Origin: Deltaproteobacteria bacterium | GTDB taxonomy: Bacteria > Desulfobacterota > Dissulfuribacteria > Dissulfuribacterales > QOAL01 | NCBI GenBank assembly: GCA_024275145.1 | Contig: JAJRZR010000111.1 | Location: forward strand, 7,466 to 71,465 | DNA: 64,000 bases | Direction of reading: 5' to 3' | Shown here: in pieces, positions 7,245 through 61,785 of the stretch | Position numbering within the stretch: the first letter of the stretch is position 1 | Layout of the letters: each line of letters opens with the position of its first letter | The notes under the pieces: model-generated | What the model was told of the DNA's origin: nothing | Database searches by the model: none | Seen by the model: the letters and a program-made list of their open reading frames with translations, nothing else | Program-made: the position numbers and the translations under genes

Positions 7245-7246
7245 TC

Positions 7247-7711: not shown

Positions 7712-7721
7712 AGCGGAATTT

Positions 7722-9047: not shown

Positions 9048-9057
9048 GGGGTCCATC

Positions 9058-12140: not shown

Positions 12141-12426
12141 GTCGTCGTTTTGGGAACGCATCTACAAGGCAAATTGACGGGAGCATCCCCCGCCATTCCT
12201 GCTTTTCCCCGGGATACACATCTTGCATCCCCTAAAGCCTGCTACCGACCGGGAGTAACAGGGACAGACGTGAGATGCTCTTAAAAATACATCCTGCCCT
12301 TTGGACTTGTTAACAGGTCCTTGGGCAGCGGTGCCAAAAAGGCACGGGGCCGCATGAAGGTTTGGGATAAAGGTTATTGGATAGTCTTTAGGGGCCGTAT
12401 ATCGGCCTGACAATGGAAATCACGCA

Positions 12427-13455: not shown

Positions 13456-13457
13456 GG

Positions 13458-14545: not shown

Positions 14546-15283
14546 TTAGTCCCGTGCCTGGTCCACGCATTTCAAGGCCATAGTGAAGAAGATGATACCC
14601 GTTAGGCCCACAAAGAGATAGGGCGAAAGGCCAGGAAGATTTCCAAATGCCGCCTGGCGAATGGCCTTGGATGCATGGGTGAGCGGCAGGATCCAGATAA
14701 TCTGCCCGGCCCAGTGAGGTAGGCGGTCTACAGGGAAAAACGTACCACCCAAAAAGGCCATGGGGGTAATCACGAAACTGGTAAGAAGGCTCTGGTCGGC
14801 ATGTGATTTGACAAGCATGGCCAGGGCGACCGCCAGTGAGGCAAACACAAAGCTGTTCAGCGCCACGGCAAGCCAAAACAGTGGATTCAGACAGTGGAGC
14901 CGTACGCCAAACAGCATGCCCAGGGTGAGTATAACCGTCACCGAAATGAGGGCCCGGCTCATGCCTGCCAAGACTTCACCGGCAACATAGGCTACGTTGC
15001 CTATGGGAGCAGCCTGGAACTCCTCGAATATGTGCCAGTAAAAGCGAGCTACGTTTATATCCGTTGCTATGGCAAAGGATTGGGTCATGCTACTCATGGC
15101 AACAAGGCCTGGTATGAGAAACTCTAGGTAGGTATGTCCCCCGAACCTTACAGACTTGCCCATGGCGTAGCCAAAGGCTATCAGGTAGAGCAGGGGTGAG
15201 ACGGACATGCTCAGGATCAACCGTTTGATCCTGCGTTTCAAAAGGAGCATCTCTCTCAGATAGATCGCTAAAAAACCACTCAA
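14546..15283 (-). CDS. ABC-2 type transporter permease
   Basis: A 245-aa polytopic membrane protein. It overlaps the upstream ATPase gene by 4 nt. Confidence 0.75.
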   Translation of the reverse strand: MSGFLAIYLREMLLLKRRIKRLILSMSVSPLLYLIAFGYAMGKSVRFGGHTYLEFLIPGLVAMSSMTQSFAIATDINVARFYWHIFEEFQAAPIGNVAYVAGEVLAGMSRALISVTVILTLGMLFGVRLHCLNPLFWLAVALNSFVFASLAVALAMLVKSHADQSLLTSFVITPMAFLGGTFFPVDRLPHWAGQIIWILPLTHASKAIRQAAFGNLPGLSPYLFVGLTGIIFFTMALKCVDQARD

Positions 15284-16119
15284 TTCTTTACCTTTTTCCC
15301 TGTAAGTGACAGGAAGGCATCTTCAAGATTTACCCTCCTGAGGGTGTAGCTGCCCCTGTGATTGGCCACGAAGGTATCGGCCTCTTTTCTATCCTTGAAG
15401 TAGACACTCTTCATCTGGCCGTCCTGCATGAGGTCGATGGCCCACTTGCCCGTACGGGCCATGAAGGCAGCGGGAGTGTCCAGTGCAGCTATCTTTCCCT
15501 TGTCTATGAAGGCCACACGGTCGGCAAGAAATTCTGCCTCCTCGATATAGTGAGTAGTAAGGAATATGGTAGTCCCTGAATGCTGTATCTGTTTGATAAG
15601 GCCCCATATTCGCCGTCTGATTCCAGGGTCCAACCCCACGGTGGGCTCGTCGAGAAAGAGGATCTTAGGGGAGTGCATGAGCGCCCTGGCGACCATGAGC
15701 CTTCGTTTCATACCCCCAGATAGTCTCTTGACAATGGTATCCTTCCTGGACATGAGATCTACGTATCCCAGGAGTTCCCTTATTCTTATTCGCCTGAGTG
15801 CCTTCTTCATCCCATACAACCGGCCATGGATGTCCATGTTCTCAAGAAGCGTAAGTTCCTGATCCAGGTTGATGGACTGCATGACAAGGCCGAACTGGCG
15901 TTTTGCGCGTAGGCTATCCCTTTCTATATGAAAGCCGTTCAGCCAGGCATTTCCACCGCTGAGCCTAGTAAGCCCGGTAAGTATACGTATAGTGGTGGTC
16001 TTACCCGCACCGTTTGGTCCAAGATAGGCAAAAAGTTCCCCGGGTTTGACGCAAAAGCTTACCTCATCAAGGGCATGGACGTGGCGGTATGTCTTCTTGA
16101 GCCCCTCTACCCTGATCAA
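15280..16119 (-). CDS. ABC transporter ATP-binding protein (ABC-2/DrrA-like)
   Basis: Walker A GPNGAGKTT, signature LSGGMKRRL and Walker B ILFLDEPT. Confidence 0.9.
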   Translation of the reverse strand: MIRVEGLKKTYRHVHALDEVSFCVKPGELFAYLGPNGAGKTTTIRILTGLTRLSGGNAWLNGFHIERDSLRAKRQFGLVMQSINLDQELTLLENMDIHGRLYGMKKALRRIRIRELLGYVDLMSRKDTIVKRLSGGMKRRLMVARALMHSPKILFLDEPTVGLDPGIRRRIWGLIKQIQHSGTTIFLTTHYIEEAEFLADRVAFIDKGKIAALDTPAAFMARTGKWAIDLMQDGQMKSVYFKDRKEADTFVANHRGSYTLRRVNLEDAFLSLTGKKVKN

Positions 16120-16409: not shown

Positions 16410-18704
16410 CTATTCCGTGACCTCCTCGATTTCCCCCTCGGTTTCGAGATAGGCATCCCTCAGGCGTATCTTCATTTCATCTGACGCATTCCACATGCCA
16501 CGTTCTATGGCCTCGAGCAGTTTATCCAGTATGTTTTCCATGGCATATGGATTCACCCCCTTCATCCACCTTTGCATCTCGGGATCAAGGACGAATTTTT
16601 CAGCAAGCCTTTCATACATCCAGTCCTCTATGACCTGGGCAGTGGCGTCCCAGCCGAGGACCACGTCCATCATCTTGGAGATATCACCTGCCCCCTTGAA
16701 GCCGTGGCGTTTCATTCCTGCAAGCCACTTTGGATTGGCAAGCCTTGAGCGAAGTACATGCCTGGCCTCTTCCAGGGTGCTGCGCATCTTTATGCGTCTG
16801 GGATCGGCACTATCACCTACCATGGCAAGGGGTAGCTCACCACGGACTGAACCTGCTGCGGCGATAAGTCCTCCATAATAGTTATAGAAATCCGTGCAGG
16901 ACATCATGTCGTACTCCCTGGAATCCTCGTTTTTTACGGTTAGCTCCATGCGAGAAAGGAGATTCCGGAACGTAGAAATCTTTTGCGTGCCATAGCTTCC
17001 AGCGCCGTATGCATGGGCGCTGTAACGTATATAGTTGTTGGCCAGGTCTTCCCTGGTTTTCCAGTTCTTGGATTCTATAAGTTCAGCGACCCCTGCGCCG
17101 TAGGTGCCGGGAGGACATCCAAAGACCCTGAAGGTTGCCTCCCTGAGGGCCTCTTCCCTGCCCATTCCCGCCTTGGTGAGGTGCTCGACATCGGCAAGGG
17201 CATTTTTCCTGATCAGATTGCTCTCCAGTGGCTCTTCAAGCGCTGCGGCCATCTTTGCGGCATTGTCCAGGAGTTCAACAAGGTTCGGGAACGAATCCCT
17301 GAAAAACCCGGATATCCTGGCCACGACATCTATCCTGGGCCTTTTGAGCCTGGACAGCGGTATTACCTCCAGGCCGGTTACGTCACCGCTACCTCTGGCC
17401 CAAACCGGTCTCATCCCCATGAGGTAGAGTATCTCTGCGATATCATCCCCCCTGGTTCGCATGGTAGGGCCACCCCAGATGATGATGCCTATGCTTTCCG
17501 GATAGCGTCCATGGGTTTCGGCCAGATGCCTTTCAAGCAGGGCGTTAGCAAGCCTCTTGCCGGTCTCCCATGCGGCCCTGGTTGGGATTTTACCAGGATC
17601 CACCGAGTAAAAATTGCGTCCCGTTGGAAGTATATCCGCCTGGCCCCTGGTTGGAGCGCCTGACGGGCCTGGCGTTACGAAGCTGCCGGAAAGTCCGGCA
17701 AGGATTGCGGAGATCTCGTCTCTTGTCTGCTTGATCCTTGGAACGAGGTCTGAGCGTATGTAATCGAGAACCTTTTCCACCCGGGTGTCCCTTACACCAA
17801 GGTGATTTTCTACGATGTCGTCTCCATTGTATTGGGAGGCAGTATTGGCGATCAGGTCCTTGACAAGGGCAATTGCGGTGGCATGGGCCTCTTCAATAAT
17901 CTCTGCCCCGCTCCTGCCTTTACTGCCTGGCACTACCTTGCCCAGGGCCTCTATGAGGGTGTCATATTCATAGCCCATTGCCCTTAGGACAGCCTCTCTT
18001 AAGGATGGTGTCTGGCCGTTTGGAAGTCGTGTAAGCTGTACCGCATATTCGGTGAGCTCATCCCCCTCAGGTGGAACCCCGAGTATGTGGAGGCCATCAT
18101 TTATCATGGTGTCCGAAAGCTCGGCAAGATACCCATGGAGCCTTTCAAGAAAACCATCAAAATCTGAAAATGCCTCTTCCTCTGTGACATGAAGATCCTT
18201 GTCCAGGTCCGCTTTGGTTGCTGCCTGCCATATCATGGGTCGCAGGATAGGAATCTTGCCAGGGTCCTCCCTCAGGGCATCGGCATATTCCTTCAGCAGG
18301 TTTTCCAGGCTGGCAAGGTCTTCGTAAAGACCCGCTTTGGTAAATACCGGGGTGAGATGATCTATAATACAGCAGAACGAGCGCCGCTTGGCCTGGGTGC
18401 CCTCACTGGGATCGTTTATGATATATGGATAGATATTTGGAAGGTCCATGATCGCAAGATCCGGGTAACAATATCCTGAGAGTCCCAGGGCCTTTCCTGG
18501 AAGCCATTCCAGGGAGCCATGCTTGCCAACGTGTATGAGCGCATCGGCCCCGAAGACCTCCTTGATCCACCTGTAATGGGCCAGGTAGTTGTGGGGAGGG
18601 GAAAGATAGAAGTCGTGGTAGAGTTTCTCTATGTTTTCAAGGTATCCACGCGGCGGCTGGATGGTAATGAAGATGTTTCCATTGATTATGCCTGGAAACA
18701 GCAT
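16410..18704 (-). CDS. cobN: CobN-type (cobaltochelatase/Mg-chelatase H family) large subunit, C-terminal ~785 aa fragment
   Basis: CobN-like sequence throughout. My hand translation upstream of the listed ATG, in the same frame, gives ...YQKKTTEDWGKVPGRLFVHNGKMLFPGIINGNIFITIQPPRG. So the frame is open and CobN-like back to the A7 run at 18758..18764. Confidence 0.85.
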   Translation of the reverse strand: MLFPGIINGNIFITIQPPRGYLENIEKLYHDFYLSPPHNYLAHYRWIKEVFGADALIHVGKHGSLEWLPGKALGLSGYCYPDLAIMDLPNIYPYIINDPSEGTQAKRRSFCCIIDHLTPVFTKAGLYEDLASLENLLKEYADALREDPGKIPILRPMIWQAATKADLDKDLHVTEEEAFSDFDGFLERLHGYLAELSDTMINDGLHILGVPPEGDELTEYAVQLTRLPNGQTPSLREAVLRAMGYEYDTLIEALGKVVPGSKGRSGAEIIEEAHATAIALVKDLIANTASQYNGDDIVENHLGVRDTRVEKVLDYIRSDLVPRIKQTRDEISAILAGLSGSFVTPGPSGAPTRGQADILPTGRNFYSVDPGKIPTRAAWETGKRLANALLERHLAETHGRYPESIGIIIWGGPTMRTRGDDIAEILYLMGMRPVWARGSGDVTGLEVIPLSRLKRPRIDVVARISGFFRDSFPNLVELLDNAAKMAAALEEPLESNLIRKNALADVEHLTKAGMGREEALREATFRVFGCPPGTYGAGVAELIESKNWKTREDLANNYIRYSAHAYGAGSYGTQKISTFRNLLSRMELTVKNEDSREYDMMSCTDFYNYYGGLIAAAGSVRGELPLAMVGDSADPRRIKMRSTLEEARHVLRSRLANPKWLAGMKRHGFKGAGDISKMMDVVLGWDATAQVIEDWMYERLAEKFVLDPEMQRWMKGVNPYAMENILDKLLEAIERGMWNASDEMKIRLRDAYLETEGEIEEVTE

Positions 18705-20185
18705 TTTTCCATTGTGTACGAACAGCCTTCCTGGTACTTTGCCCCAGTCTTCGGTTGTTTTTTTCTGATACGTCCAGGAAGTCCCTTGTGCCAGGCATGG
18801 TATCTGTCTTCATCGGCTACCGCCTCGGCCCTTTCTGCCATATGTTCGGATGTGAGCCATCTGCCATCCCATGTCAGGCCTGACAGAAGCTCCCTAGCCA
18901 GCTCATCCCCGTTCTCGTACAGCCGTTCCACCTGGTAACCCTCTTCCTTCATTCTATCGAGGAGGTGCTTGACGCTCGTGAAGCTGTCAAGACCTGCTGC
19001 GCAACCGATCCGGTCGTTTCTGGGAGGATAGTTGTGAAAGACTATAGCCACCCTTTTTTCGTGGTTGCCGAGGTGCCTGAGCCTTGCCCAATTGAGGGCT
19101 ATCGAAACCATCTTCTCCACCCTGTCGGGGATGGGCACATTCCTGGCGAGAAGTGCACCGGTCAAAGGGTCTGTTTCGTCCTGCTCTCTGGAGGCCACCG
19201 GTACGGTGATCAGTGCCCCATCGAACTCGGGCTGTGCTGCAGAATAGGAGACATCCATTACGGATACACCCTGTATGTTTTCCTCCCAATACTTCCTGGT
19301 GTTCATCATGGTCATCGCCTGGATAAAGGGCACGTCGAGCCCCTGTAATATCTTCTTATACTCCGGTGCGGCAATGGTAAGGGAGAACATCATCGGGTTT
19401 ATGAGCACATCTATCCTTGGGCGTTCGCCATCCATGAAAAAGTGGCTGGCTATATAGTCTGCCCCATGGTTCCCAAGCACATTGTCCTTCCATCTATGGT
19501 GAAAGACCGGAATTACGTTTGCGCCTCTACGTTCGATCTCACGTATTATGGCATCTATGTATGAAAGATTGCCGTTTACCCAGTAGGACTGGTAAAACCA
19601 TAGTCCTGCTGTCACCCTTCCAGGTTTGACCCTCTGTGTCAGATACTCATAGAGACATGGAATGCCCGGAATGTCAGGGTGATAAATACCTTCATTTGGC
19701 AGCGGAGTCGGTGCTTCGGCCCTGTTTTTTTCCTCAAGGAGCAGGTTACGGAGGAACAGGAATAGGTTGTAAAAATTCAGGTGTCCGCCGTGGGTCAGGT
19801 AGGCGTTGATTGTATCCCACTGGGTAGTGCCAAAGGCATCTGAGAAGTCCCTTGCTGCACCAAGGCCGTCTTCGTCCCCGCCCGAGGCATATATGTGAAT
19901 GTACGGGGTCTTTTCACCCTTTCTACTTCTTTCATTCAGTTCATCCATTAGGATGTCGAAGGAAGGAAAGGATGCCTTGCCACCGTGTAATATTATCAAG
20001 ACTGCGTGGGCAGTTAGCGCATCCCTGACGAATGCCTTGACCTGCCTGTCAGAAGAAAGCTGCGTCTTTGTCCTTGCTCGTACCTCGACACAGCCTCCTT
20101 GTTCTCTAAACCTGCGCACCCCTGCGCTCAATGATGGGATTTCAGTTGCCGTGGCGCTGAAGTAAGAGATCCTCAGTGGCTTCAT
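18686..20185 (-). CDS. cobN: CobN-type chelatase, N-terminal ~475 aa fragment (leaves the CobN frame at an A7 run and terminates at 18686)
   Basis: ORF 18686..20293. I chose the start MKPLRISYFSATA at 20185, which forms an ATGA overlap with the upstream radical-SAM stop. N- plus C-fragments total about 1,260 aa, the usual CobN length. Confidence 0.8.
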   Translation of the reverse strand: MKPLRISYFSATATEIPSLSAGVRRFREQGGCVEVRARTKTQLSSDRQVKAFVRDALTAHAVLIILHGGKASFPSFDILMDELNERSRKGEKTPYIHIYASGGDEDGLGAARDFSDAFGTTQWDTINAYLTHGGHLNFYNLFLFLRNLLLEEKNRAEAPTPLPNEGIYHPDIPGIPCLYEYLTQRVKPGRVTAGLWFYQSYWVNGNLSYIDAIIREIERRGANVIPVFHHRWKDNVLGNHGADYIASHFFMDGERPRIDVLINPMMFSLTIAAPEYKKILQGLDVPFIQAMTMMNTRKYWEENIQGVSVMDVSYSAAQPEFDGALITVPVASREQDETDPLTGALLARNVPIPDRVEKMVSIALNWARLRHLGNHEKRVAIVFHNYPPRNDRIGCAAGLDSFTSVKHLLDRMKEEGYQVERLYENGDELARELLSGLTWDGRWLTSEHMAERAEAVADEDRYHAWHKGLPGRIRKKQPKTGAKYQEGCSYTMEKCCFQA

Positions 20186-21306
20186 CCCTGCCTCCTCTGT
20201 TCCGCTTCCCACAGGGCCTGATACATGACACACGTGAGCCCCTTGTGACCTCTGCCGTTGTAGTAGAGCCTGCTGGGACAGTCGCCAGGACAACGCCCTT
20301 CAAGGGGGCAGTACTCACACCAGATCCCCTTGGCCTCAAGACCGGTAAGTGATCTGCCGCTCAGGGTTTCTGGTTGTAGTTCATGCAGGTTTCCCAGATA
20401 AAAGTCCATGTCACCAGCGGTCTGAGAACACGGGAAAAGGGAGCCGTCAGGAAGGACAGCAAGGCTTTCACCAATGCAGGCATGGCAGTAAACGGCTGCC
20501 TTGGCCCGCGACGCCGGTCTTCTTATATTTTCAAGCTCCCGTAGGGTCAATGCCACGGAGCGTCTTTCGTTCACATATAACAGCGCATCATAGAGCCTTG
20601 ATATGCCGGCCTTGAGTGCCTGTTCATCCGGAGGGGCCACAGGTACCAGCGAGCCTTTTGCCCTTCCTTTGTTCACCAGTATGTCCAAGGCAAGTCCCCT
20701 GCAGGCAGGAAATGCCGAAAGCAGTAGCACGAGCTTGTCCAAAAATAGTACGTTATCCCTGGTAACCACAGCAGTAACCCTGAAGTCCATTCCAATTTCA
20801 TTCAATATTTTCATACAATATAGTGTATTATTAAAGTTTCCCCTTAAGAAATTGTGGACATCCTTTGGGCCATCGAGGCTTATTCCAATCTGTATGCCCA
20901 GTTCCCTGAATTTTTTGGCAGTATCAAGATCCATCATGGTCCCGTTGGTCTGCAAACCAATGGTGACGGGAAACCCTGCCTGCCTTATGACAAGGGCGAT
21001 CCAATGAACCAGCTCTATCTCCAGAAGGGGTTCTCCACCGCTGATCTGGACATGGAACGGTTTGCCGCAGGAGGAGGCGAGCAAGATGGCGCGCCAGGCG
21101 ATATCACGGCTCATGGCTGGTAGTCCCCGGGGATTACCTCGGTAGCAGTAGGAGCATTTCAGGTTGCAGGCATTGGTTACAAGCAATATGAGATACCTTG
21201 GTGGAGTCCGGTAAGGCGTCCCGGTATCCCTTAAGATCCGGGCATCATGTACAGGATTGGCCGTCGCCCTTTTGGCACGTTCAGACATTACATGGCGCAG
21301 ATTCAT
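20182..21306 (-). CDS. Radical SAM protein with a C-terminal SPASM domain (AhbD/NirJ/AslB-like architecture)
   Basis: CNLKCSYC (CxxxCxxC) radical-SAM cluster motif. The SPASM-type Cys pattern is YCHACIG...LPDGSLFPC...CEYCPLEGRCPGDC. Confidence 0.85.
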   Translation of the reverse strand: MNLRHVMSERAKRATANPVHDARILRDTGTPYRTPPRYLILLVTNACNLKCSYCYRGNPRGLPAMSRDIAWRAILLASSCGKPFHVQISGGEPLLEIELVHWIALVIRQAGFPVTIGLQTNGTMMDLDTAKKFRELGIQIGISLDGPKDVHNFLRGNFNNTLYCMKILNEIGMDFRVTAVVTRDNVLFLDKLVLLLSAFPACRGLALDILVNKGRAKGSLVPVAPPDEQALKAGISRLYDALLYVNERRSVALTLRELENIRRPASRAKAAVYCHACIGESLAVLPDGSLFPCSQTAGDMDFYLGNLHELQPETLSGRSLTGLEAKGIWCEYCPLEGRCPGDCPSRLYYNGRGHKGLTCVMYQALWEAEQRRQG

Positions 21307-21749
21307 CGGAGCACATCCTCCATTAAATCAAGAAGTTGCGGTATGCCTTGGCATACAGTTATCCTGGCCGCGTCCCTCCCAAAGCCCTTCCTCAATTCAT
21401 CGGCCGGCCTAAGAGAGAACACGGCGCACCCCATATTGAGTGCAGCCCTTACCAGTTCCAGGTTTGGCCGGTTCAGGGCGCCCGTTTTAAAACCCGAATC
21501 CACAAACACTGATGCCTGCCTTGCCAGTTCCAGTGCCCTGTTGACCTTTTCTTTGCCTATGACCTCCATGGGAGGGCATCCTGCAATACAGGCCCCAAGG
21601 GCTGAAGCCACATGATAGTCAAGGTCGTTTTCGTGGAGCACGCCGGTGGAGATGGAATAGCCACGCCTGACCAAGGACCTGAACAGCCCTGACCCTGAGG
21701 CCATCCCTGCTGCCACGAACACCTTTTTCCCGGTCCTATTTCCCGTCAT
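21303..21749 (-). CDS. Hypothetical 148-aa soluble protein (no family recognised)
   Basis: An ORF with plausible coding character, translationally coupled (ATGA) to the downstream radical-SAM gene. A Gly-rich N-terminus (KKVFVAAGMASGSG) hints at a nucleotide-binding-like fold. Confidence 0.55.
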   Translation of the reverse strand: MTGNRTGKKVFVAAGMASGSGLFRSLVRRGYSISTGVLHENDLDYHVASALGACIAGCPPMEVIGKEKVNRALELARQASVFVDSGFKTGALNRPNLELVRAALNMGCAVFSLRPADELRKGFGRDAARITVCQGIPQLLDLMEDVLR

Positions 21750-21791
21750 CTCAAGGCACCCGAGGGCAGGATCGAACCCGGCACCTGAAAG

Positions 21792-22523
21792 CTAGAAAAG
21801 ATGGGTAACGGTCTCTTTCTTGAGAAGTTCCTCAGGAGGCCCCCAACCCATGATGCCCCCATCCTTCACGAGCATCACCTGGTCGGATAACCTGGCAGCC
21901 AGGCCCACGTCGTGAAGTGATGCCACGACGGTGATGTCCCGCTCACGGCACAACCCCTGAAGGATTGCCATTACCTCCATGGAGTGCTTGAGATCAAGAT
22001 GCAGGGTGGGCTCGTCGAGGATGATGATGTCCGGTTCCTGGGCAAGCGCCCTGGCAATGAGCACCTTTTGTCTTTCACCATCGCTCAATGTCTCAAGGCG
22101 TCTGGTGGCAAGATCCCCTGCATGGACCATGGAAAGTGCCTCCAAGATTACCTTGCGGTCCGGTTCCGTAAGCCTTCCCATGAAATCCGTGTATGGATAC
22201 CGTCCAAGGGCCACAAACTCGAAGGCCGAAAAAAGTCCTGGCTGCACCTTGTCGGTAAGTACTATCGAGAGCAATCTGGCAAGCTCCTGGGAAGGAAACC
22301 CTTCAAGGGCCCTTTCCCTGAGCAGTATCACCCCTTTTATCGGAGGAAGCAGCCTGGCAAGGCTCCTCAACAAAGTGGTTTTCCCTGCCCCGTTGGGACC
22401 AAGAAGTGATATGAAACTGCCTCTGGGCAAGGCAAGATCTATATTGCTCAAGACACCCCTGATCCCGTATCCCACTTCGAGCCCTTTCGTTTCGATCGTA
22501 TAACTGCCTCTCTCCTGTCTCAC
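21792..22523 (-). CDS. Iron-complex/cobalamin-type ABC importer ATP-binding protein (BtuD/FepC-like)
   Basis: Walker A GPNGAGKTT, signature LSDGERQKV and Walker B IIILDEPT. It overlaps the permease gene by 4 nt. Confidence 0.9.
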   Translation of the reverse strand: MRQERGSYTIETKGLEVGYGIRGVLSNIDLALPRGSFISLLGPNGAGKTTLLRSLARLLPPIKGVILLRERALEGFPSQELARLLSIVLTDKVQPGLFSAFEFVALGRYPYTDFMGRLTEPDRKVILEALSMVHAGDLATRRLETLSDGERQKVLIARALAQEPDIIILDEPTLHLDLKHSMEVMAILQGLCRERDITVVASLHDVGLAARLSDQVMLVKDGGIMGWGPPEELLKKETVTHLF

Positions 22524-23548
22524 TCCATAACCCTCCGTCTGGTAAGAAGGCTTATGACTATAGGGGCGCCGAACAGGGCAGTTATCGCACTTATGGGAAG
22601 TTCTACAGGGGAGAATATGAGCCTTGCCGCCAGGTCACACAAGCTTGTCACGATCCCGCCGAGCAGGATGGTGGCTGGCACCAGGATACGGTTGTCTGAG
22701 GTTGCAAAACCCAGGCGTGCCATATGAGGTACTGCAAGCCCTATGAAGGCCACCGGTCCCGCCACTGCCGTCACCATGCCGGATAGGGAGCAGGCACAAA
22801 GGAGGATCAAGAAGCGCTGAATGCGTATGTTTACCCCCATGCTTGAGGCGTATGACTCTCCAAGAAGGAGGGCATTAAGGGATTTGCCAAGGGCTAGTGA
22901 GACAACGAGGAGCGCGCCTCCAAACAGGAGGAGCATCTTTATCTCGGACCATTTAAATCCGGAAAAGCTGCCGAGTTGCCACAGGACAAACCCTTTTATT
23001 TTCTCCTGTTCGGCAAACGCCACTAGGACGCTCGTGACTGCATGGCAAAGGTATCCCATCATGAGGCCGACGATCAGAAGCGTTATAGGGTTTTTCGTCT
23101 TCGAGGCAATGACCAGGATGATGGCAAGGACCCCGACCGCCCCTGCCAGGGCCGACAGGGTGGTAAGGAACGGGGTGAGGTGGGCGATGTTCAGGCTTAT
23201 GGAAGTGAGCATTACCAAAGAGACCATCAATATAGCCCCAGAGGATATACCCAGTATGAAGGGGCCGACTATCGGGTTCCTGAAAAAGACCTGGAGGAGA
23301 AGGCCTGAGACCGCAAGGCACGCACCTCCGAAGACAGCGGCAATGGTTCTAGGGATGCGGATGTTCCACACGATGAATCCATTGGTGCTTAATGTATCGT
23401 GTCCACTTATCATATGCATTAGGCTCGAGACCGGGATATCAATGGATCCTGACATGACGTTGACTGCCATACATGCAAGGAGGGCAACGAGGAGCAGTAT
23501 GAAGAGAAGAATGTGGCGCCTATTCTTTGGCAATACGTACCTATCCAT
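22520..23548 (-). CDS. FecCD-family ABC importer permease (BtuC-like)
   Basis: A 342-aa polytopic protein with typical FecCD features (RIPRTIAAVFGGACLAVSGLLLQ, GAPIVISLL). Confidence 0.9.
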   Translation of the reverse strand: MDRYVLPKNRRHILLFILLLVALLACMAVNVMSGSIDIPVSSLMHMISGHDTLSTNGFIVWNIRIPRTIAAVFGGACLAVSGLLLQVFFRNPIVGPFILGISSGAILMVSLVMLTSISLNIAHLTPFLTTLSALAGAVGVLAIILVIASKTKNPITLLIVGLMMGYLCHAVTSVLVAFAEQEKIKGFVLWQLGSFSGFKWSEIKMLLLFGGALLVVSLALGKSLNALLLGESYASSMGVNIRIQRFLILLCACSLSGMVTAVAGPVAFIGLAVPHMARLGFATSDNRILVPATILLGGIVTSLCDLAARLIFSPVELPISAITALFGAPIVISLLTRRRVME

Positions 23549-24671
23549 TATCCGTTGGGTCCTTGTCTGGAAGCTCTTTGAAAAATTTCAGGTGATATCC
23601 TGGGAAACGTTTAGGATTCAGTATCGCTGCCACTTCTTTTATGATTTCGTCCAACCTGTCTGCACTTTGTGCATAGGCTGGAAGCGGTGAATAGACCCTG
23701 CCCCTGGTCAGTGGGCCGATATCCTTCAGGAGGGGATTCGTCCTGGCCAAGGCCTCCTTTGATGTGGCCCCGGCCCCGGGGGTTTTGTACGTAAAGAGTA
23801 TGTCCGCCTTTTTCCCGCTGGAAAGAAACCTTTCCAGTGTTATCTCCATTCAGGAGGCCCCTGATATGTCCCTGAAGAGGTACTTTCCTCCGGCGAGCTG
23901 TATTATCTGTGCCGCCCATGAGTCTCCAGGTTCCACCATCACCCTTTTTTCGTATATGTCCCCCCATATCACCTTGGGAGGCCTTCCTGGAGAAAGATGC
24001 ATAGCACGAATCCGTGCTATAGCAGCCCGTAGCCTTGCCACATAACGCCCTGCGGCCTCTTCCCTTTGAAAGAAGAGGGCTAGGAACTGGACAAAACGCA
24101 TCCTGGTATCAAGATCCATGGCCTTGGCAGTGGATGTTATGACACCGGCCATGCCAAGTTCCTCGATCTTCGGTATGGCGGATTGATCCCAGGTGAATAC
24201 TACATCTGGTCTGATGGCCCTTAGCCTTTCGTAGTCCACGGCATTGGGTTCACCTACATAGGTGATCCGGCCATCCTTCATGCCTTGACTCACCTCCTCT
24301 ATGGTCCAGTCCTCCCTTTCCCTGGTAACACCGACTAGTGTGCTTTCAAGAACCCCTATGGCCTTGAGCAGGGACACCACATAACCTGAGTAGGCAACTA
24401 CCCGGCGGACCGGTATCTCTATGATCCGGTCTCCCTCATACCCTTTCGGTGGCCTCTGTCCCCTGGGAACCAAGAGCATGCGCCTCCCGGCACCATCACG
24501 GATTTCCTTGCACCCGTTTGGCAGACATGTGGCGGAAAATTCCCCGAGATCAAGGAAGTTGCGGGTAGCCTTGCGTTCCTTCATGCACCCTGGAAGGAAA
24601 ATGATGAAAAACAGTAGGAAGATGGTTGCTGTGTACCTATAGCCGGTTTTCAATGCTTGTTTACTGGGCAT
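23541..24671 (-). CDS. BtuF/FecB-type periplasmic substrate-binding lipoprotein, interrupted by an in-frame TGA at 23850..23852
   Basis: ORFs 23850..24764 and 23541..23849 are contiguous in one frame and separated only by TGA. The lipobox FLPGC follows MPSKQALKTGYRY (start chosen at 24671). Both halves look like one class-8 PBP (..AGGKYLFRDISGAS*MEITLERFLSSGKKADILF..). Confidence 0.7.
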
Positions 24672-24702
24672 AAGTGTTTTTTCCTGTAAGCCTGACGGTA
24701 TC

Positions 24703-25545
24703 TTATTTTCCTTCACCATGGTTCCTCGGGCCACGTGAAGGTTTGGACCCTTTGATAAATACACGAAATAGATAGAGTGCCAGCCCGATCGTGAAGAGCA
24801 GGGTGCCTGAAAAATAAAGGATCGTTCCCCTGTCCCTTTTCACTAGTAGCCGTACATATGGGGTGTCGTTCATGGAGGATCTGCTCTTCGGGCCAAAGTC
24901 CTCTAGATAAAAGCCAAGACCATTGAAGAAAAAGGGGGAGTTTATGCCGATTGCCCTGGCCACGGTTGTTTCGCCGGACTTTAGGCCGATGGTGAAATGG
25001 ACCGAGATGGTACGGCCATTGAGGTATTTCAGGCGGTTTCCCCGGTAGTAGTCTATGTCAGATGAAACGAGCTCCAGGTATATGTCAGTGCCGGGGATCC
25101 TGGTGCTTTCACCTTTGACTGCAATTACACTTGAGGCGTACCTGCCAGGGAATGTATAGCTTGCTAGAAGGCCAAAAAGTATGACTAACAATGCATAATG
25201 CATTATGTGTACGAATAGTTTCGATATGAGACCGGCACGATTTCGGTATATTCTGTAAAGAAAGAGGACCTTGGATGTTGTACATGTAAGGGTATTTACC
25301 GCTAGTATAAACAGGAGTACGAACAACAAGAATAACCACAAGGTCTTCCAGGGGTGGATGGCGGCATACGTGAAGCCCCAGCGTATGAGTCCAAGGTGGT
25401 TGAGTGGATTAAAGAGATCCTCGTTTTCCCTGAGGCAGAGATAGCCGGCTGCCAGATCCACAGTCACCAGGGACATCGTCAATACGGCAAGGGGGACGCC
25501 TTTCAGGACAGGCCATATCCTTTCAAGGGTTACAGCCATGGCCAC
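24703..25545 (-). CDS. ResB/Ccs1-like membrane protein (short, 280 aa)
   Basis: N-terminal transmembrane helices with the pattern LFLLFVLLFILAVNTLTCT typical of ResB, then a soluble segment and a C-terminal transmembrane helix. It overlaps the upstream CcsA-like gene. Confidence 0.6.
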   Translation of the reverse strand: MAMAVTLERIWPVLKGVPLAVLTMSLVTVDLAAGYLCLRENEDLFNPLNHLGLIRWGFTYAAIHPWKTLWLFLLFVLLFILAVNTLTCTTSKVLFLYRIYRNRAGLISKLFVHIMHYALLVILFGLLASYTFPGRYASSVIAVKGESTRIPGTDIYLELVSSDIDYYRGNRLKYLNGRTISVHFTIGLKSGETTVARAIGINSPFFFNGLGFYLEDFGPKSRSSMNDTPYVRLLVKRDRGTILYFSGTLLFTIGLALYLFRVFIKGSKPSRGPRNHGEGK

Positions 25546-26297
25546 CTCATCAGTCCGTTGATATCAGGCGGGGAAAAGGGGCCAAGGTTTGGATACCATT
25601 GGAAGAGCACGACAAGCCCCGCCCCCAAGACTGCGGCAAGTGCCCGTCTTCTCATACCCCATCCCCTCAGAAGATCGAGGTGAAGGTAGCAGCCATAATA
25701 AAACCAGGTGGACATGGACAGGGTTATCAGTGGATCGTCCCAGACCACGGGGCTTCCCCATCCCAGGTATGACCAGATTTCACCAGAGAAGATAGACAAT
25801 GTGTCCAGTGCAAAGCCCCATATGGCCCAATGGTTGAAGATGGGTCTAGTAGTGCCTCTGTCCTTAAGATAGGAAAGGGCCAGAAGGCCTGAAATTATGA
25901 AGCAGGCATCCGCCATGACGCCTGTGAGGAAGAAGATATGGGAAAATATGGTCCTTGATTTCCAAAATGGAAGGTAGAAGTCCTTGGGGAAGAATAGCGC
26001 TCCCAGTGACAGCAGGGCAAGGAGGCCTAGTAGCCAGCGGGATTCCTTTCCCTGGTAAAGGACCGATCCGCTAAGCAGGATTCCCACCAAGGACGGCAGG
26101 AAGAACGGCATCTGGTACATTGGTAAAAAGGGCCAGGAATGATAGTATCTGGCCGCATCCGATAGCAGGTTTGCCAGGATTGCCAATACGAAAAGCGGTA
26201 TGGAGGCCGCTGGAGCAGGTGACGGCATCATGGAGGTGCACCATGCCATGGTATACAGGATGGCAGCCATGGCAAACGGGGCATGCAGCGAAGGCAT
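25530..26297 (-). CDS. CcsA/ResC-like haem-handling protein (cytochrome c assembly family, WWD motif)
   Basis: Trp-rich motif GWGSPVVWDDPLITLSMSTWFYYGCYLHL. The protein is polytopic. I chose the start at ATG 26297, which has an AAGGA RBS, 7 nt after the receptor stop. The longer ORF would overlap the receptor by 86 nt. Confidence 0.75.
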   Translation of the reverse strand: MPSLHAPFAMAAILYTMAWCTSMMPSPAPAASIPLFVLAILANLLSDAARYYHSWPFLPMYQMPFFLPSLVGILLSGSVLYQGKESRWLLGLLALLSLGALFFPKDFYLPFWKSRTIFSHIFFLTGVMADACFIISGLLALSYLKDRGTTRPIFNHWAIWGFALDTLSIFSGEIWSYLGWGSPVVWDDPLITLSMSTWFYYGCYLHLDLLRGWGMRRRALAAVLGAGLVVLFQWYPNLGPFSPPDINGLMRWPWL

Positions 26298-26304
26298 CTT
26301 GTCC

Positions 26305-28224
26305 TTAGAACCTGTATTCCAACCCCGCCTTGGCCATGCGGGGCATATCATAGTAGACATACCTGTTCGATGCCTCGGGACGCCTTTCACCTGTGGTTAC
26401 AAGGGTATCATCAAAGAGATTGTCCACGCCAAAGGTCAGGAAAAGATGTGGATTTACCCTGTATTTCCCTGTAAGGTACAGGCAGCTAAGGTCATTCAAA
26501 TCCCGTTCCCTTTTGAAGAGGTGATAGGTTCGGATGTCCAGATAAAACGTGCCGTCATCATAGGTGACCGCCGTGGAAAGCTGGATTTTGGGACCTGCCT
26601 GATAGTCCCTGCCTGATATATCCTCTGCTTTCGGATCGGCCCAGTAACCGCACAGGGACAGGCTCATGTTGGAAACCACTGAATCAACTTGACTGAATGG
26701 TTGCAATCTGGTTTGCCATTCAATGCCTGTAGATCTATATGAGCCGGCATTATAATAGTGAAGCGGGTAACCCTGGGAACGGTCGATCTCTATCTTGTCG
26801 TTATAGTTCATATAGAAACCAGCTAGCCTTATAGAGATCAGTGGGCTGTCCCATTTAAGCCCCACGTCATAGGTCCAGCCCTTTTCAGGTCCTAGGTTGG
26901 GATTTCCTTCCAGGAAGGTGCTTAAGTAGTAGAGGTTGTTGAACGTGGGGGCCTTGAAGGCCTTGCCTGCATTGGCAAAGAACGAAAGCTCCCTATTTGT
27001 CTCGTAGATAATGGCAAGGGTTGGAAGTAACCTTTCATAGTCTTCGGCCCCATATTTACCATCTATGAACTGCTCCCTTATCCCCAGGCTAGCAGTTATG
27101 TGGCCTGAAAAGGTATACTTAGCGTAGCCGAATACGGAGTAGTCATAACGCCTCTTGTATCCATATTGGTTGTTGTAGTCCGCATCTCTGCGGATATAAT
27201 CGGCACCGGTCACAATGGAGAGGTCCTTGAACGAAAAGTCGTAATTGATCTCTCCACCCCAGTTCCAGTTTTTGTTCATGTTTACTGACCTTGCCTGCCT
27301 CCATGCCCGTTTCCTTCTACTATATTTCCACTTCCTATTGGCATAGTTCATGTAGTCATTGAAGAAAAAGCCCTTGGCCAGGAGCCTGTTCCCTTTGTAT
27401 TTGATGTCTGCAAAATGTTTGAATTGCCGTTGATGGGAAATAGCCAGCGGATCTGGTCCACTTTCCTTGTCATTAATCTTGATATAGCCGGTATTGTTAT
27501 GGGAAAAGATGTAGTCAAGGGACAGATTGTCAGTAAGACTCACTCCGGCATTGAAATTGTATACATTGAGATCAGTGGTATTGTAATGATAGTCCTTGCT
27601 GAAATTATCAGAAAGATGGGCCTGTCCCCCTATGTGTTGATAGCCTAAATTAACAATGAAGTTTTTTCCGTAACAACTGATTGAATTGTTCAGATATTTA
27701 AAGTCACCTGCTTCAATTTTTACGTCTGCACCTTTTTTCTTTATCCTTGTCCTGGTGATTATATTGATGATTCCGGTCATGGCGTCCGCCCCATAGAGGG
27801 TGGATGCGGCTCCGCGGACGATCTCGACTTGCTTGATTGCATTAAGCGGAATCATATTGAGATCATAGGATTTGCTGGAGGCGTTTTGTATCGGAAGGCC
27901 ATTTATCAAGACAAGTTCCCCGCCATAGACCCCTCTTAGTAAAAGTTCACTGTTCATGCCCCCATGGCTCGTGCCAAGTACCCCGAGTGATTTATAGGCA
28001 AGGCCACCGCTTCGTTTTAGGGCATCTATCAAGTTTGTGGCACCACTCGCCATGAGTTCCTTCCGGTTTATGACCGTGACGTACTTGGCAGTGTCTTTTT
28101 CCTGTACCTCAACCTTCTCGGCAGTGACGATGACCGGTCCTATCTCCACCAAGGACCCGGCGTATGCTGGCAATGCTGTCAAGGTGGACATCAAAAACGA
28201 AAAAAATAAGGCAAAAAATCGCAT
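26305..28224 (-). CDS. TonB-dependent outer-membrane receptor (BtuB-like by context)
   Basis: Signal peptide MRFFALFFSFLMSTLTALPAYA after an AGGAGG RBS. TonB-box/plug region (VIVTAEK...). The C-terminal beta-barrel ends ...AGLEYRF. It lies directly downstream of the cobalamin riboswitch. Confidence 0.9.
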   Translation of the reverse strand: MRFFALFFSFLMSTLTALPAYAGSLVEIGPVIVTAEKVEVQEKDTAKYVTVINRKELMASGATNLIDALKRSGGLAYKSLGVLGTSHGGMNSELLLRGVYGGELVLINGLPIQNASSKSYDLNMIPLNAIKQVEIVRGAASTLYGADAMTGIINIITRTRIKKKGADVKIEAGDFKYLNNSISCYGKNFIVNLGYQHIGGQAHLSDNFSKDYHYNTTDLNVYNFNAGVSLTDNLSLDYIFSHNNTGYIKINDKESGPDPLAISHQRQFKHFADIKYKGNRLLAKGFFFNDYMNYANRKWKYSRRKRAWRQARSVNMNKNWNWGGEINYDFSFKDLSIVTGADYIRRDADYNNQYGYKRRYDYSVFGYAKYTFSGHITASLGIREQFIDGKYGAEDYERLLPTLAIIYETNRELSFFANAGKAFKAPTFNNLYYLSTFLEGNPNLGPEKGWTYDVGLKWDSPLISIRLAGFYMNYNDKIEIDRSQGYPLHYYNAGSYRSTGIEWQTRLQPFSQVDSVVSNMSLSLCGYWADPKAEDISGRDYQAGPKIQLSTAVTYDDGTFYLDIRTYHLFKRERDLNDLSCLYLTGKYRVNPHLFLTFGVDNLFDDTLVTTGERRPEASNRYVYYDMPRMAKAGLEYRF

Positions 28225-28371
28225 ATCATCCTCCTGCCTCCTGATTCCCACGGTATCGCCAGGTTTTGCAGGTACGTGTCGGAAACTTGATGCTGGCAGG
28301 GTCTATTCCCAATTGGCGGGGGAAGAAAACAGGGCATGGATAGAGGGTAGGGGTTGCCTTGCAGGGCTTAT

Positions 28372-28408
28372 AAACGAAAAAGCCCGGCATCGCGCAACGA
28401 TCCGGACT
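28372..28408 (-). terminator. Intrinsic terminator in the riboswitch expression platform
   Basis: The minus strand reads GUCCGGAUCG-UUGCG-CGAUGCCGGGC followed by UUUUUCGUUU. That is about 10 bp of stem with one bulge plus a U-tract, between the aptamer and the receptor start codon. Confidence 0.6.
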
Positions 28409-28465
28409 TTTGTTACAAAAAAGATACCCGGACAGGCCTTTAGCCGCGAAGCCTTCCTTCTTCCC

Positions 28466-28647
28466 CCTAGGCCGGTATCCCGGCTTGTGGATCGTTCTAC
28501 TGACTGCGCCTTCCCATGGCCAGGTTTGCTTGAACCGGCAAAGATGCCACAGTGGCTATGTGCAGCCTTCGTCCCCACTTACGGTTGCGGGCCAGCGCCG
28601 GATTTTCACCGGCTTCCCGATTAATTCTGCAACGGCAGAAACCTAGG
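28466..28647 (-). promoter_or_regulatory. Cobalamin (B12) riboswitch aptamer
   Basis: The minus strand carries AAUCGGGAAGCCGGUGAAAAUCCGGCGCUGGCCCGCAACCGUAA, then GCCACUG, then AUGGGAAGGCG, then a B12-box-like AGUCAGUAGAAC. A CCUAGG/CCUAGG pair closes P1 (28642-28647 with 28466-28471). Confidence 0.9.
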
Positions 28648-29049
28648 GTGGATATATATAAGATATGTGTTTTCAATGGCGTTTGTTTACGAACGCCTCG
28701 CTTATGCCGCCTATTGAGCACAAGGCATAAAATTCAAACAATGTTAACCTAAGGTTTGATTATGTCAAGGGCCAACTGGTGTGTCGAGCCAGCCATTACG
28801 GGCCTGGACGCTTTTACTGCATGCGCTCATAGGGCTTGGAGCTTTTACCTTCTATGGTCTGGCCATAAGGACATGGCGAAGATATGGTAATAGGGCCTGT
28901 TCAGGCCTGGACTTCCCGGGTAGATTGTCTGGTGACGATCAGGGGAGCCCTTTGAAAAGGATTTGCCGTTAAGATACATCCTGTCCTTGAGCCATGTTTT
29001 CGTGCCCGGAGATGCGGCGTCAAGGGTGGGGCTGCATAAAGGCTTGACA

Positions 29050-45393: not shown

Positions 45394-45438
45394 CAACCTT
45401 TGTGTTTCGATGGAATCCGGATTTCAAGGACAAGGCAC

Positions 45439-47031: not shown

Positions 47032-47046
47032 GTGCTGGTGTGACCG

Positions 47047-53398: not shown

Positions 53399-53400
53399 CT

Positions 53401-54228: not shown

Positions 54229-54256
54229 AGTCCCTGGAATCTCCCTCCGTGCACAT

Positions 54257-56612: not shown

Positions 56613-56733
56613 GTTTTCTGCCGTAGGATTTGGTCATTTCACTGGATATGACCGGGAAGAAATAGGGAATGGTCTTTATCAGGAGTCGTTTTGCCAAAGG
56701 AGACTGCCATGGAGGGATACATCAATAGCTTGT

Positions 56734-61575: not shown

Positions 61576-61785
61576 TTAAAAGGGCCTTTTAAAAAAATCT
61601 TTCACTGGAAGATCAAATGTTCAGGTCTGTTTTTTGGTCCTTGTGTAGGTACCCCTGAACATGAATATACAGCCCCGATGAGGGCTATATTTTCACGGTA
61701 AAATTGAACAGGGATGAAACCCGTCCTGTATCCGTTTTTTCAATATATCGATATATCGACCCAGCCCTGGATGCAAGGAGGAGAA

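Follow-up and report, generated by a model that had tools for sequence, protein, structure and literature searches.

A cobalamin-riboswitch gene cluster of Desulfobacterota predicted to combine corrinoid uptake with a CcsBA-like membrane pair and a CobN chelatase

Operons for cobalamin (vitamin B12) uptake led by B12 riboswitches are already known, as are CobN-like genes lying beside btu genes (Rodionov's BtuS idea). This study deals with a 64,000-nucleotide stretch of contig JAJRZR010000111.1 from a Deltaproteobacteria bacterium (hereafter the window; positions are counted from its first letter), in which a cobalamin riboswitch heads a string of co-oriented genes. They encode a BtuB-like receptor, two membrane proteins resembling CcsA and ResB, a BtuF-like binding protein with its ATP-binding cassette (ABC) module, a radical S-adenosylmethionine (SAM) enzyme and the chelatase subunit CobN. 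Our analysis suggests, with a probability of roughly 0.55, that this string represents a conserved system for the acquisition and processing of corrinoids (cobalt tetrapyrroles) that is typical of Desulfobacterota and repressed by cobalamin through the riboswitch.

Among the described systems, BtuB-BtuFCD of Escherichia coli, together with BtuCDF of Halobacterium, resembles the window in its RF00174 leader, TonB-dependent receptor (TBDR), class III periplasmic binding protein, FecCD/BtuC permease and BtuD-type ATPase. The tail of the ATPase is homologous to that of archaeal BtuD, and the position of BtuF Trp85 is kept. The window-type unit differs in that all NCBIfam equivalog cut-offs for Btu proteins are missed, an invariant cysteine or selenocysteine (Cys/Sec) appears to stand in place of Trp196, and Trp66 is lost; the binding protein of the window is also a lipoprotein and exceeds BtuF in length by about 110 residues. 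Furthermore, the window-type unit always has a CcsA/ResB-like pair and usually CobN.

The pair resembles CcsBA/ResBC (Helicobacter hepaticus, 7s9y/7s9z) in its Pfam families (PF01578 and PF05140), the WWD motif, the His before it, the adjacency of the two genes, the best fold match and a membrane His in each partner. It differs from CcsBA in having no conserved second periplasmic His and in the small size of the ResB-like protein, whose 280 residues do not include the large periplasmic region that comprises 535 residues in CcsBA. Its setting differs as well: the pair belongs to a B12 regulon and adjoins an ABC importer, and neither a CXXCH apoprotein nor ResA or CcdA is found nearby. A more speculative, functional likeness may be drawn to System I, CcmABC(D)E, in which a membrane protein of the WWD type is likewise combined with an ABC ATPase and permease and with a periplasmic acceptor that is anchored in the membrane and bears one key ligand residue. 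CcmE, however, is unrelated in sequence to the binding protein, and the window-type ABC module belongs to the type II importers.

The chelatase resembles the large subunit of CobNST and CobN-ChlID (785 bits to 7c6o), and relatives have ChlD (AAA plus VWA) or ChlI and ChlD adjacent. Unlike those systems, it occurs here in anaerobes, some with CbiK adjacent, and inside an uptake operon, and the window copy is partnerless and frameshifted. In BtuS/HmuS of Bacteroidota, a CobN homologue also adjoins a TonB-dependent receptor; Rodionov's proposal, in the words cited in PMC6460266, placed such a CobN-like protein in 'salvage of metalloporphyrins'. HmuS acts on haem imported into the periplasm, needs the membrane fraction and NADH, and belongs to a haem-uptake operon, whereas the window-type chelatase looks cytoplasmic and CobN-like, stands beside AAA+ genes in relatives and is predicted to be B12-regulated.

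BtuM is a vitamin B12 transporter in which a cysteine binds cobalt and removes cyanide; we know of no selenocysteine (Sec) forms of it. It shares with the window-type unit, as predicted here, a thiolate ligand to corrinoid cobalt in an uptake protein, but it is an energy-coupling-factor S-like membrane protein and not a periplasmic binding protein. The literature searched contained no report of an obligatory CcsBA-like pair, of Cys/Sec in place of a corrin-contact Trp, or of a true CobN together with a SPASM enzyme in a salvage context. No paper was found in it joining ResB/CcsA with btu genes, cobN or the riboswitch, in line with a preliminary description of this DNA, made from its sequence alone, which did not recognise the combination as a described pathway.

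Gene string of the window

The components of the riboswitch-led string are given below in the direction of reading, with the ABC-2 genes that follow it.

28741-28787, minus strand: two overlapping sigma-70-like promoter matches, TCGACA-17-CATAAT (with TG) and TTGACA-16-TAACAT, directly 5' of the riboswitch
28453-28661, minus strand: cobalamin riboswitch aptamer, RF00174 (Rfam 120.3 bits, gathering score 31.5, E = 1.3e-29, model positions 1-189, full)
26305-28224, minus strand: TonB-dependent outer-membrane receptor, BtuB-like, with plug and beta-barrel domains
25530-26297, minus strand: CcsA-like WWD-domain membrane protein (PF01578, 49 bits), after a 7-nt gap from the TBDR gene
24703-25545, minus strand: short ResB/CcsB-like membrane protein of 280 aa (PF05140, 24.6 bits, exactly the cut-off), overlapping the CcsA-like gene
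23541-24671, minus strand: class III periplasmic binding lipoprotein, BtuF-like (Peripla_BP_2, PF01497, 57 bits), after a 31-nt gap from the ResB-like gene
22520-23548, minus strand: FecCD/BtuC-type ABC permease (PF01032, 256 bits), with an 8-nt overlap with the binding-protein gene
21792-22523, minus strand: BtuD/FecE-type ABC ATPase, with a 4-nt overlap with the permease gene, ending at an in-frame TAG
21303-21749, minus strand: 148-aa open reading frame (ORF), the detached MJ0874-like C-terminal domain of the ATPase, after a 42-nt gap
20182-21306, minus strand: radical SAM enzyme with a SPASM-type motif (PF04055), with an ATGA overlap with the 148-aa ORF
16410-20185, minus strand: CobN, class I chelatase large subunit (PF02514), -1 frameshifted, with an ATGA overlap with the radical SAM gene
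14546-16119, minus strand: ABC-2 type exporter pair, a DrrA/NodI-like ATPase (15280-16119) and a DrrB/NodJ-like permease (14546-15283)

RF00174 was the single Rfam family matched across the 64-kb window. The match encloses the riboswitch placed at 28647-28466 in the preliminary description, and the covariance-model search proposed there thus came out positive. Every ORF, Pfam identity, gap and overlap listed in that description was recovered. The string is co-oriented with tight junctions as it stated, but nine ORFs are listed and not ten; the in-frame TGA of the BtuF-like gene, the frameshift in CobN and the TAG of the ATPase gene had been overlooked.

Gene order and junctions predict that the riboswitch heads a single transcription unit. 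The two sigma-70-like sites are consensus matches only, and shuffled versions of the whole region give more such matches; promoter and terminator scans of the region were uninformative on the borders of transcription units. The ABC-2 pair is co-oriented with CobN and lies 290 nt downstream of it. It probably belongs to the riboswitch-led unit as an accessory part, since it recurs in related loci, being found inside the riboswitch-led clusters of L017, L022, L031, L060, L073, L076, L079 and L087 and also 3' of CobN in the syntenic relative L085.

Conservation across related loci

Homologues of the CcsA-like protein were collected and one genome per species was scanned, which gave 80 loci; together with locus L001 and the window, a total of 82 distinct loci were used for the analysis. 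Genes were counted by tblastn and ORF clustering, and the counts are to be read as minimum values, as many contigs stop within the cluster.

ResB-like protein: 82 of 82 loci, always adjoining the CcsA-like gene
Binding protein: at least 76 of 82 loci
Permease/ATPase: at least 74 of 82 loci
CobN: at least 59 of 82 loci
TonB-dependent receptor: at least 42 of 82 loci
Radical SAM enzyme: at least 28 of 82 loci
ChlD-like protein: at least 23 of 82 loci

The order CcsA-ResB-binding protein-permease-ATPase was found to be nearly invariant across the 82 species-level loci, and two look-ups that started from the binding protein again found CcsA/ResB directly upstream. A co-oriented cobalamin riboswitch was identified 5' of the CcsA-like gene in 73 loci, at a distance of at most 900 nt in 47 of them. 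This survey used an nhmmer profile seeded with two Rfam-confirmed aptamers. Re-checking of its matches with Rfam confirmed 12 out of 12 (11 loci; 88-130 bits), and the aptamer of L001-L003 was confirmed as well, so that full-aptamer RF00174 scores above the gathering threshold were obtained in the 14 related loci checked in this way.

The carriers are mostly Desulfobacterota/Thermodesulfobacteriota of several orders, with a few Betaproteobacteria and one Rhodospirillaceae metagenome-assembled genome (MAG). Isolates among them are Desulfocarbo indianensis, Desulfogranum japonicum, Desulfocicer vacuolatum, Desulfatibacillum alkenivorans and Desulfobulbus rhabdoformis; Desulfobacula toluolica is a further cultured carrier. 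The nearest named relatives of the window locus are Deltaproteobacteria/Thermodesulfobacteriota MAGs; look-ups by identical sequence of the window radical SAM enzyme, of its CcsA-like protein (P0001) and of the homologue P0036 gave no record. Genes for ExbB, ExbD, TonB, DUF3450 and TPR proteins and the ABC-2 ATPase/permease pair recur as neighbours. CbiZ was found in or beside six of the 82 loci and in addition in L087, and CbiK in five loci.

The juxtaposition of these genes is not accidental. Chance association, or several independent units with unrelated functions, is scarcely credible given that gene order and riboswitch are conserved in 82 species-level loci from several orders, plus Betaproteobacteria and a Rhodospirillaceae MAG, and that start and stop codons overlap. 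The preliminary description regarded the genes as one B12-linked module, a view to be given up if they never co-localise elsewhere. The neighbourhood survey with riboswitch scoring that it proposed revealed a recurring gene set, with the riboswitch co-occurring in 73 of the 82 loci, and the claim of one conserved module stands.

Comparison of the window with L085 revealed about 81% DNA identity and two common flanks, with LPS and pst genes bordering one end and a GGDEF regulator bordering the opposite end. L085 has no receptor gene: only a 109-aa ORF was called at its positions 7991-8176, whereas the window has the TBDR gene between the riboswitch and the CcsA-like gene. This difference is a lineage-specific insertion or loss.

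Several other arrangements were observed around the riboswitches. Tandem same-strand aptamers occur 5' of the receptor gene of the cluster in L013 (5264-5768) and L024 (335-850). Back-to-back aptamers on opposite strands were found in L032 (3882-4374), L033 (8930-9394), L034 (8922-9467) and L046 (2390-2833), which suggests divergent B12-regulated operons served by one intergenic region. In L057, from a Desulfohalobiaceae MAG, five repeats of the clustered regularly interspaced short palindromic type (RF01315; 86-385, minus strand) lie just 5' of the riboswitch-led cluster, and uptake and chelatase genes stand on the opposite strand under a second riboswitch. The window itself has no second riboswitch by Rfam; it carries the anaerobic ribonucleotide reductase gene nrdD at 61714-63912 (plus strand), and nrdDG is regulated by a B12 riboswitch in some delta-proteobacteria (PMC545781).

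The binding lipoprotein and its putative membrane partners

Analysis of the transport genes revealed TonB-B12 (TIGR01779) as the best NCBIfam match of the receptor (134 bits, below the equivalog cut-off) and BtuC PRK03784 as that of the permease (202 bits, below the cut-off). The 148-aa ORF, previously listed as an unknown protein, is the detached C-terminal domain of the ABC ATPase: the two lie in the same frame and are separated by the TAG at 21792-21794 (minus strand) alone. The domain matches residues 269-350 of NF007082, 'corrinoid ABC transporter ATPase' (archaeal BtuD); scanned by itself, it gave no Pfam match and no PDB match. Relatives encode ABC_tran fused to PF27219 MJ0874 in proteins of 398-422 aa, and the ATPase and the MJ0874-like domain form one ORF in 71 of the 72 other loci. 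Pyrrolysine as the meaning of the TAG was considered and rejected, given that the position is occupied by Asp in L085 and L001, that it lies in a linker and that TAG occurs there in one of 72 loci. An ATG encoding a conserved Met is found 42 nt past the TAG.

The BtuF-like binding protein, which has an LPGC lipobox, is predicted to be a selenoprotein. Two features of its gene bear on this.

23850-23852, minus strand: in-frame UGA, read as Sec from the alignment of the TGA/Cys column
23818-23837, minus strand: hairpin resembling a selenocysteine insertion sequence (SECIS), CUGGAAAG-GUUU-CUUUCCAG, with an 8-bp stem, starting 12 nt after the UGA

The column in question holds TGA in 12 distinct loci (the window and 11 others) and TGC or TGT in 61, and no other residue was found in any of the 73. 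The PF01497 match of the window protein spans the TGA. Over the approximately 100 codons after it, the other TGA loci are 55-78% identical to the window, with differences mostly at third positions, and this stretch is at least as conserved as the stretch before it. In the remaining TGA loci, ATT or CTG comes next after the TGA, which makes a restart there unlikely; a split gene with such a restart was rejected on this basis.

The hairpin was compared between TGA and Cys loci by counting pairs in a fixed register, in place of minimum free energy, which does not separate the two groups (-11.2 against -10.0 kcal/mol). The TGA loci form 7.4 of the 8 pairs on average and have the GUUU loop in 12 out of 12 cases, whereas 4.3 of 8 pairs form in the Cys loci, where the loop sequence varies (p = 1.7e-7 by the Mann-Whitney test, with no correction for phylogeny). 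A compensatory double change from G-C to A-U was found in L011 and L012. Between L040 (TGA) and its Cys sibling L058 (TGC), the synonymous change from GAA CGG to GAG AGG adds two pairs to the hairpin. Covariation of His to Asn with Sec at window residue 383 was also considered and did not hold up. A tRNA gene search found none within the 64-kb window.

Public annotation ends the TGA-bearing proteins at the TGA, namely at 289 aa for the window protein (P0061) and at 273 aa for P0062, and the tail of the L085 protein is annotated as a gene of its own (118 aa). SaoB and SaoX, described by Haft and Gwadz, are substrate-binding proteins with Sec from a family other than the present one, and these authors knew of no others at that time; Sec/Cys in the proteins of the SAO system were interpreted as metal ligands. 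The window family resembles SaoB and SaoX in that an ABC substrate-binding protein carries Sec where contact with the ligand is presumed, and in database genes that end at TGA, but SaoB and SaoX differ in fold family and in their motifs, which are CU or UxP. A catalogued Sec-containing BtuF entry has a CxxU motif, whereas the window family has G-x-[SA]-U-[ILM]-E, with Gly and not Cys at -3; it therefore probably represents another site or family than that entry. No NCBIfam model names the Cys/Sec binding-protein family of the window.

The position of Cys/Sec was examined on an AlphaFold2 (AF2) model of a Cys homologue, P0063 (predicted local distance difference test, pLDDT, 87), which has the two-lobe fold of class III binding proteins. 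Foldseek gave 194 PDB matches for this model at E <= 1e-3, and the top 50 were all class III binding proteins. The family profile aligns Cys/Sec with the Trp of SWTKVSMEE in 4ovk, and E. coli BtuF has the same motif in VPW196PQVSREQ. The corrinoid cavity of BtuF is lined by six residues (Y50, W66, W85, F162, F168 and W196), and the C-lobe, which carries W196, faces the beta side of the corrin (PMC5269720). Besides W196, two of the six could be placed in the family: the equivalent of W85 is an invariant Trp, W66 is not kept, and many invariant aromatic residues are retained in the pocket. The motif alignment thus points to the BtuF Trp196 position for Cys/Sec. If this equivalence holds, a thiolate or selenolate would be placed to ligate the metal of a bound tetrapyrrole.

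A metal ligand at this site would also fit a supply of cobalt alone, in which the receptor, binding protein and ABC module import a cobalt chelate or a sulfide-type complex, Cys/Sec binds the metal, and the cobalt feeds CobN-ChlID and CbiK for de novo B12 synthesis. Two types of cobalt chelatase adjoin the transporter (CobN in 59 of 82 loci, CbiK in five), B12 riboswitches commonly gate cobalt transporters (Rodionov 2004, PMC545781), the Sec/Cys of the SAO proteins offer a precedent as metal ligands, and class III binding proteins carry metal chelates too. We nevertheless consider this explanation unlikely: WWD-domain proteins with conserved His are tetrapyrrole handlers (PMC6299221), the corrinoid-salvage enzyme CbiZ recurs, the equivalent of BtuF Trp85 and many invariant pocket aromatics are kept, and the ATPase tail matches that of corrinoid BtuD.

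The CcsA-like protein carries the motif GExWSYLGWGxPVVWDDP, which is invariant or nearly so across the loci and lies in a loop between two helices in the AF2 model (pLDDT 85). The top two Foldseek matches of this model were H. hepaticus CcsBA, 7s9z and 7s9y (probability 1.00, E = 3e-3 to 9e-3), with a TM-score of 0.55 normalised to the query. A His is found before the WWD motif in 94% of the loci and after it in 100%; in the model, the invariant second His lies 18 residues into the next helix, towards the cytoplasmic side. The C-terminal periplasmic tail has no His, Cys or Met conserved across the loci, and the second periplasmic His is absent.

For the ResB-like protein, W56, W70, C88, H113, H116, D238 and G247 were found to be invariant, and H113 and H116 lie at the start of the third predicted helix. 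PF05140 was matched by 30 of the 30 members tested (best E = 3.6e-14). The match of the window protein covers profile positions 147-274 of 486 only, and the large periplasmic domain is missing. PDB sequence searches with the CcsA-like and ResB-like profiles gave no match. Neither a cytochrome or CXXCH client nor ResA or CcdA recurs in the loci surveyed.

The defining mark of the haem-handling family is a periplasmic His on either side of the WWD motif (P-His1 and P-His2), and CcsBA additionally has one membrane His in each half (TM-His1 and TM-His2) (PMC6299221). The pair of this study appears to keep a bis-His site near the cytoplasm and one outer His and to miss the defining ligand, with the TM-His assigned by position in the model and not by structural superposition. 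It is named CcsBA-like here, and not a cytochrome c synthetase, because the defining second periplasmic His is missing. Taken together, sequence and model suggest a non-canonical, CcsBA-like pair that would handle tetrapyrroles.

The missing second periplasmic His would leave one axial position free for a ligand from a partner. On this basis, the pair might act as a Ccm-like chaperone that moves a cytoplasmic metal-tetrapyrrole outward to the WWD site and loads it, through coordination or a covalent bond, onto Cys/Sec in the lipoprotein, with the ABC module releasing or recycling the product as CcmAB does for CcmC-CcmE. Apart from the absent His, the conserved His pair near the cytoplasm (H113/H116 of the ResB-like protein and the His after WWD in the CcsA-like protein), the genes of the pair and the lipoprotein, which are always adjacent and translationally tight, and the recurrent ABC-2 pair, as in CcmAB, agree with such a role. 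It is nonetheless decidedly unlikely: no CXXCH or His stands beside Cys/Sec in the family alignment, the FecCD/BtuC permease is of the importer type, the outer-membrane receptor and the TonB system argue for uptake from outside, and the bound cofactor is conjecture.

Corrinoid uptake as preferred here could also be joined to a loading role. The pair would then be the first branch of the haem-handling superfamily dedicated to a cobalt tetrapyrrole, serving as a Ccm-like loading station in which Cys/Sec of the lipoprotein supplies the missing axial ligand, and the corrinoid would be passed between pair, selenoprotein and ABC module rather than simply pumped. We offer this as a tentative and rather unlikely extension.

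Chelatase, radical SAM enzyme and the proposed function

CobN was previously given as a single ORF (20185-16410). Analysis of its translation revealed two frames, 18686-20293 and 16410-18704, split by a -1 frameshift at the following site.

18758-18764, minus strand: A7 run at which the CobN frame shifts by -1 (A_AAA_AAA in register)

Addition of one A gives a CobN of 1258 aa that matches PF02514 with 1327 bits over profile positions 2-1089 of 1090. Among the 61 CobN-bearing loci, split frames occur in the window only. CobN of L085 is intact (1258 aa) and has no A-run at the site, which reads GGGGAAAAGATAACC. A conserved programmed -1 frameshift or transcriptional slippage was rejected for these reasons: none of the other CobN-bearing loci among the 61 shares the split, and L085, the nearest relative, lacks the A-run.

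Comparison with solved structures gave 785 bits to CobN 7c6o, 692 to CobN 9uk9, 512 to ChlH and 372 to HmuS, and the N-terminus as read has no obvious signal peptide. The protein is thus predicted to be of the true-CobN type and looks cytoplasmic. Metal removal by CobN, which had been put forward together with metal insertion, finds no support, since the scores against true CobN (785 and 692 bits) greatly exceed the 372 bits obtained against the dechelatase HmuS. The absence of an AAA+ partner from the window was borne out: tblastn and Pfam scans of the large ORFs found no ChlI, ChlD, CobS or CobT in the 64 kb, and a ChlI/ChlD partner is absent near CobN in the syntenic L085 too. In more than 23 loci, ChlD or ChlI and ChlD stand beside CobN; ChlD of these relatives has an intact ChlI-like AAA+ module with VWA, or ChlI and ChlD are separate genes. 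Single chlD genes beside cobN are known (PMC9227772).

These data bear on whether the locus serves haem or iron acquisition in the manner of Hmu/BtuS of Bacteroidota, with haem as the imported compound and CobN as a dechelatase. The CobN homologues HmuS and BtuS take iron from haem and adjoin TonB-dependent receptors (PMC12583661; PMC6460266), CcsA and ResB are haem handlers, and the nearest folds of the binding protein include haem binders. Such a function is very improbable here. A cobalamin riboswitch, and not iron regulation, heads 73 of the 82 loci, and CobN scores more than twice as high against true CobN as against HmuS. HmuS acts on haem imported to the periplasm (PMC12583661) and BtuS is predicted to be periplasmic and membrane-anchored (PMC6460266), unlike CobN here with no obvious signal peptide. 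Relatives have the ATP-dependent partners ChlI/ChlD, with CbiZ and CbiK as neighbours.

The radical SAM enzyme contains CX3CX2C (CNLKCSYC) and a C-terminal CX2CX5CX3C, CEYCPLEGRCPGDC, in its translation; the Pfam SPASM model gave no match at E <= 0.01. It was previously considered AhbD/NirJ-like. Its full-length NCBIfam matches are to radical SAM/SPASM maturases, with PapB best (90 bits) and DynA at 79, against 61 bits for AhbD (cut-off 500), 57 for NirJ2 and 54 for AhbC, and its closest PDB structures are CteB (5wgg) and anSME (4k37). The best matches are hence peptide- or protein-modifying SPASM enzymes, and a specific likeness to AhbD or NirJ is not borne out. Where present, the gene usually lies directly upstream of CobN. 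In L087 (13344-20325), the ATPase gene is followed by ChlD, ChlI, the ABC-2 pair, the radical SAM gene and then CbiZ, with no CobN within 10 kb; the genes for the radical SAM enzyme and the AAA+ subunits are therefore not confined to places where CobN stands next to them.

The TAG in the ATPase gene and the CobN frameshift are private to this lineage or assembly and are read as error or decay. That both are real and the window locus is a decaying remnant, with the module partly non-functional here, is possible but doubtful. Both lesions are unique to the window (among 72 loci for the TAG and 61 for CobN), L085 is intact at both sites, and the window ORF map shows no obviously broken genes elsewhere, which makes a generally error-ridden assembly unlikely. 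On the other hand, A7 in place of A8 is a typical mistake of assembly or slippage, a -1 slippage on the in-register A_AAA_AAA would give exactly an intact CobN, the ATG 42 nt past the TAG could let the tail domain be made separately, and no other gene of the unit is damaged.

Pfam scans of the other large ORFs of the window identified housekeeping genes. A chemotaxis cluster (methyl-accepting chemotaxis protein, CheW, CheR-like protein, a second CheW-like protein, CheA-CheY hybrid and CheB), followed by a response-regulator diguanylate cyclase, occupies 5571-14474 (plus strand) and borders on the ABC-2 genes; in L085, too, the riboswitch-led cluster is flanked by this GGDEF regulator. A string of menaquinone/futalosine type at 52658-57819 (minus strand) comprises UbiE methyltransferase, VitK2_biosynth, an amidohydrolase and two CofH/MqnC-type radical SAM enzymes and is unrelated to the present finding. 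Inside the trp operon (45394-47102), a 398-aa minus-strand ORF with no Pfam match is probably spurious and masks trpG/trpD of the plus strand.

A corrinoid is taken as the cargo of the system because the receptor and permease match Btu models best, the ATPase has a BtuD-like tail, CbiZ is a neighbour and W85 of BtuF is kept; the CbiZ, CbiK and TonB-ExbBD genes in related loci strengthen the corrinoid context. In the proposed mechanism, the unit would be expressed when corrinoid is scarce. The BtuB-like receptor would bring the corrinoid into the periplasm, where the lipoprotein would capture it, with Cys/Sec at the equivalent of BtuF Trp196, in the lobe facing the beta side of the corrin, as axial ligand to cobalt. 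The BtuC/BtuD-type ABC module, whose ATPase normally bears the archaeal-BtuD C-terminal domain, would work with this binding protein, and the minimal CcsBA-like pair, as an obligatory partner, would hold the metal-tetrapyrrole at the inner membrane or pass it through. In the cytoplasm, CobN (with ChlI/ChlD in relatives) would insert or re-insert cobalt, on the corrinoid or a metal-free relative of it. The radical SAM enzyme, CbiZ, CbiK and the ABC-2 exporter may be variable accessories for remodelling.

Several points weigh against this proposal. The NCBIfam equivalog cut-offs of BtuF, BtuB and BtuC were all missed, with 20 bits against a cut-off of 234 for the BtuF model. The haem binders ShuT, PhuT, BhuT and RhuT, siderophore binders (CeuE) and corrinoid binders match the binding-protein model alike in Foldseek (about 1e-12), and its fold cannot name the ligand for this reason. 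Both hhalign and hmmsearch aligned E. coli BtuF over the N-lobe only; the link of Cys to W196 therefore comes from a two-step motif alignment through 4ovk and is tentative. The conserved His pair near the cytoplasm, as in CcsBA, suggests export and not import, and an ABC importer and a CcsBA-like channel in one unit look redundant. We know of no role for a CobN-type chelatase in corrinoid salvage, and the known substrate of CobN is a metal-free intermediate of the late-insertion pathway. Finally, co-transcription as one unit is a prediction, and the window copy, with its nonsense codon and frameshift, may be partly inactive.

Corrinoid traffic shapes anaerobic communities, and uptake outside E. 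coli and Bacteroides is mostly deduced from BtuFCD look-alikes. Among sulfate reducers and related bacteria, this study identifies a widespread, riboswitch-marked variant of such loci, three parts of which call for explanation. An invariant Cys (Sec in one clade) apparently in place of a corrin-stacking Trp predicts direct ligation of cobalt by a thiolate or selenolate, and the binding protein would add a family of selenoproteins that gene callers cut off at TGA. The CcsBA-like pair would extend a superfamily thought to handle haem only. An ATP-dependent chelatase of the CobN type in a salvage operon of anaerobes hints at a step of metal insertion or re-metalation that is absent from pathway charts.

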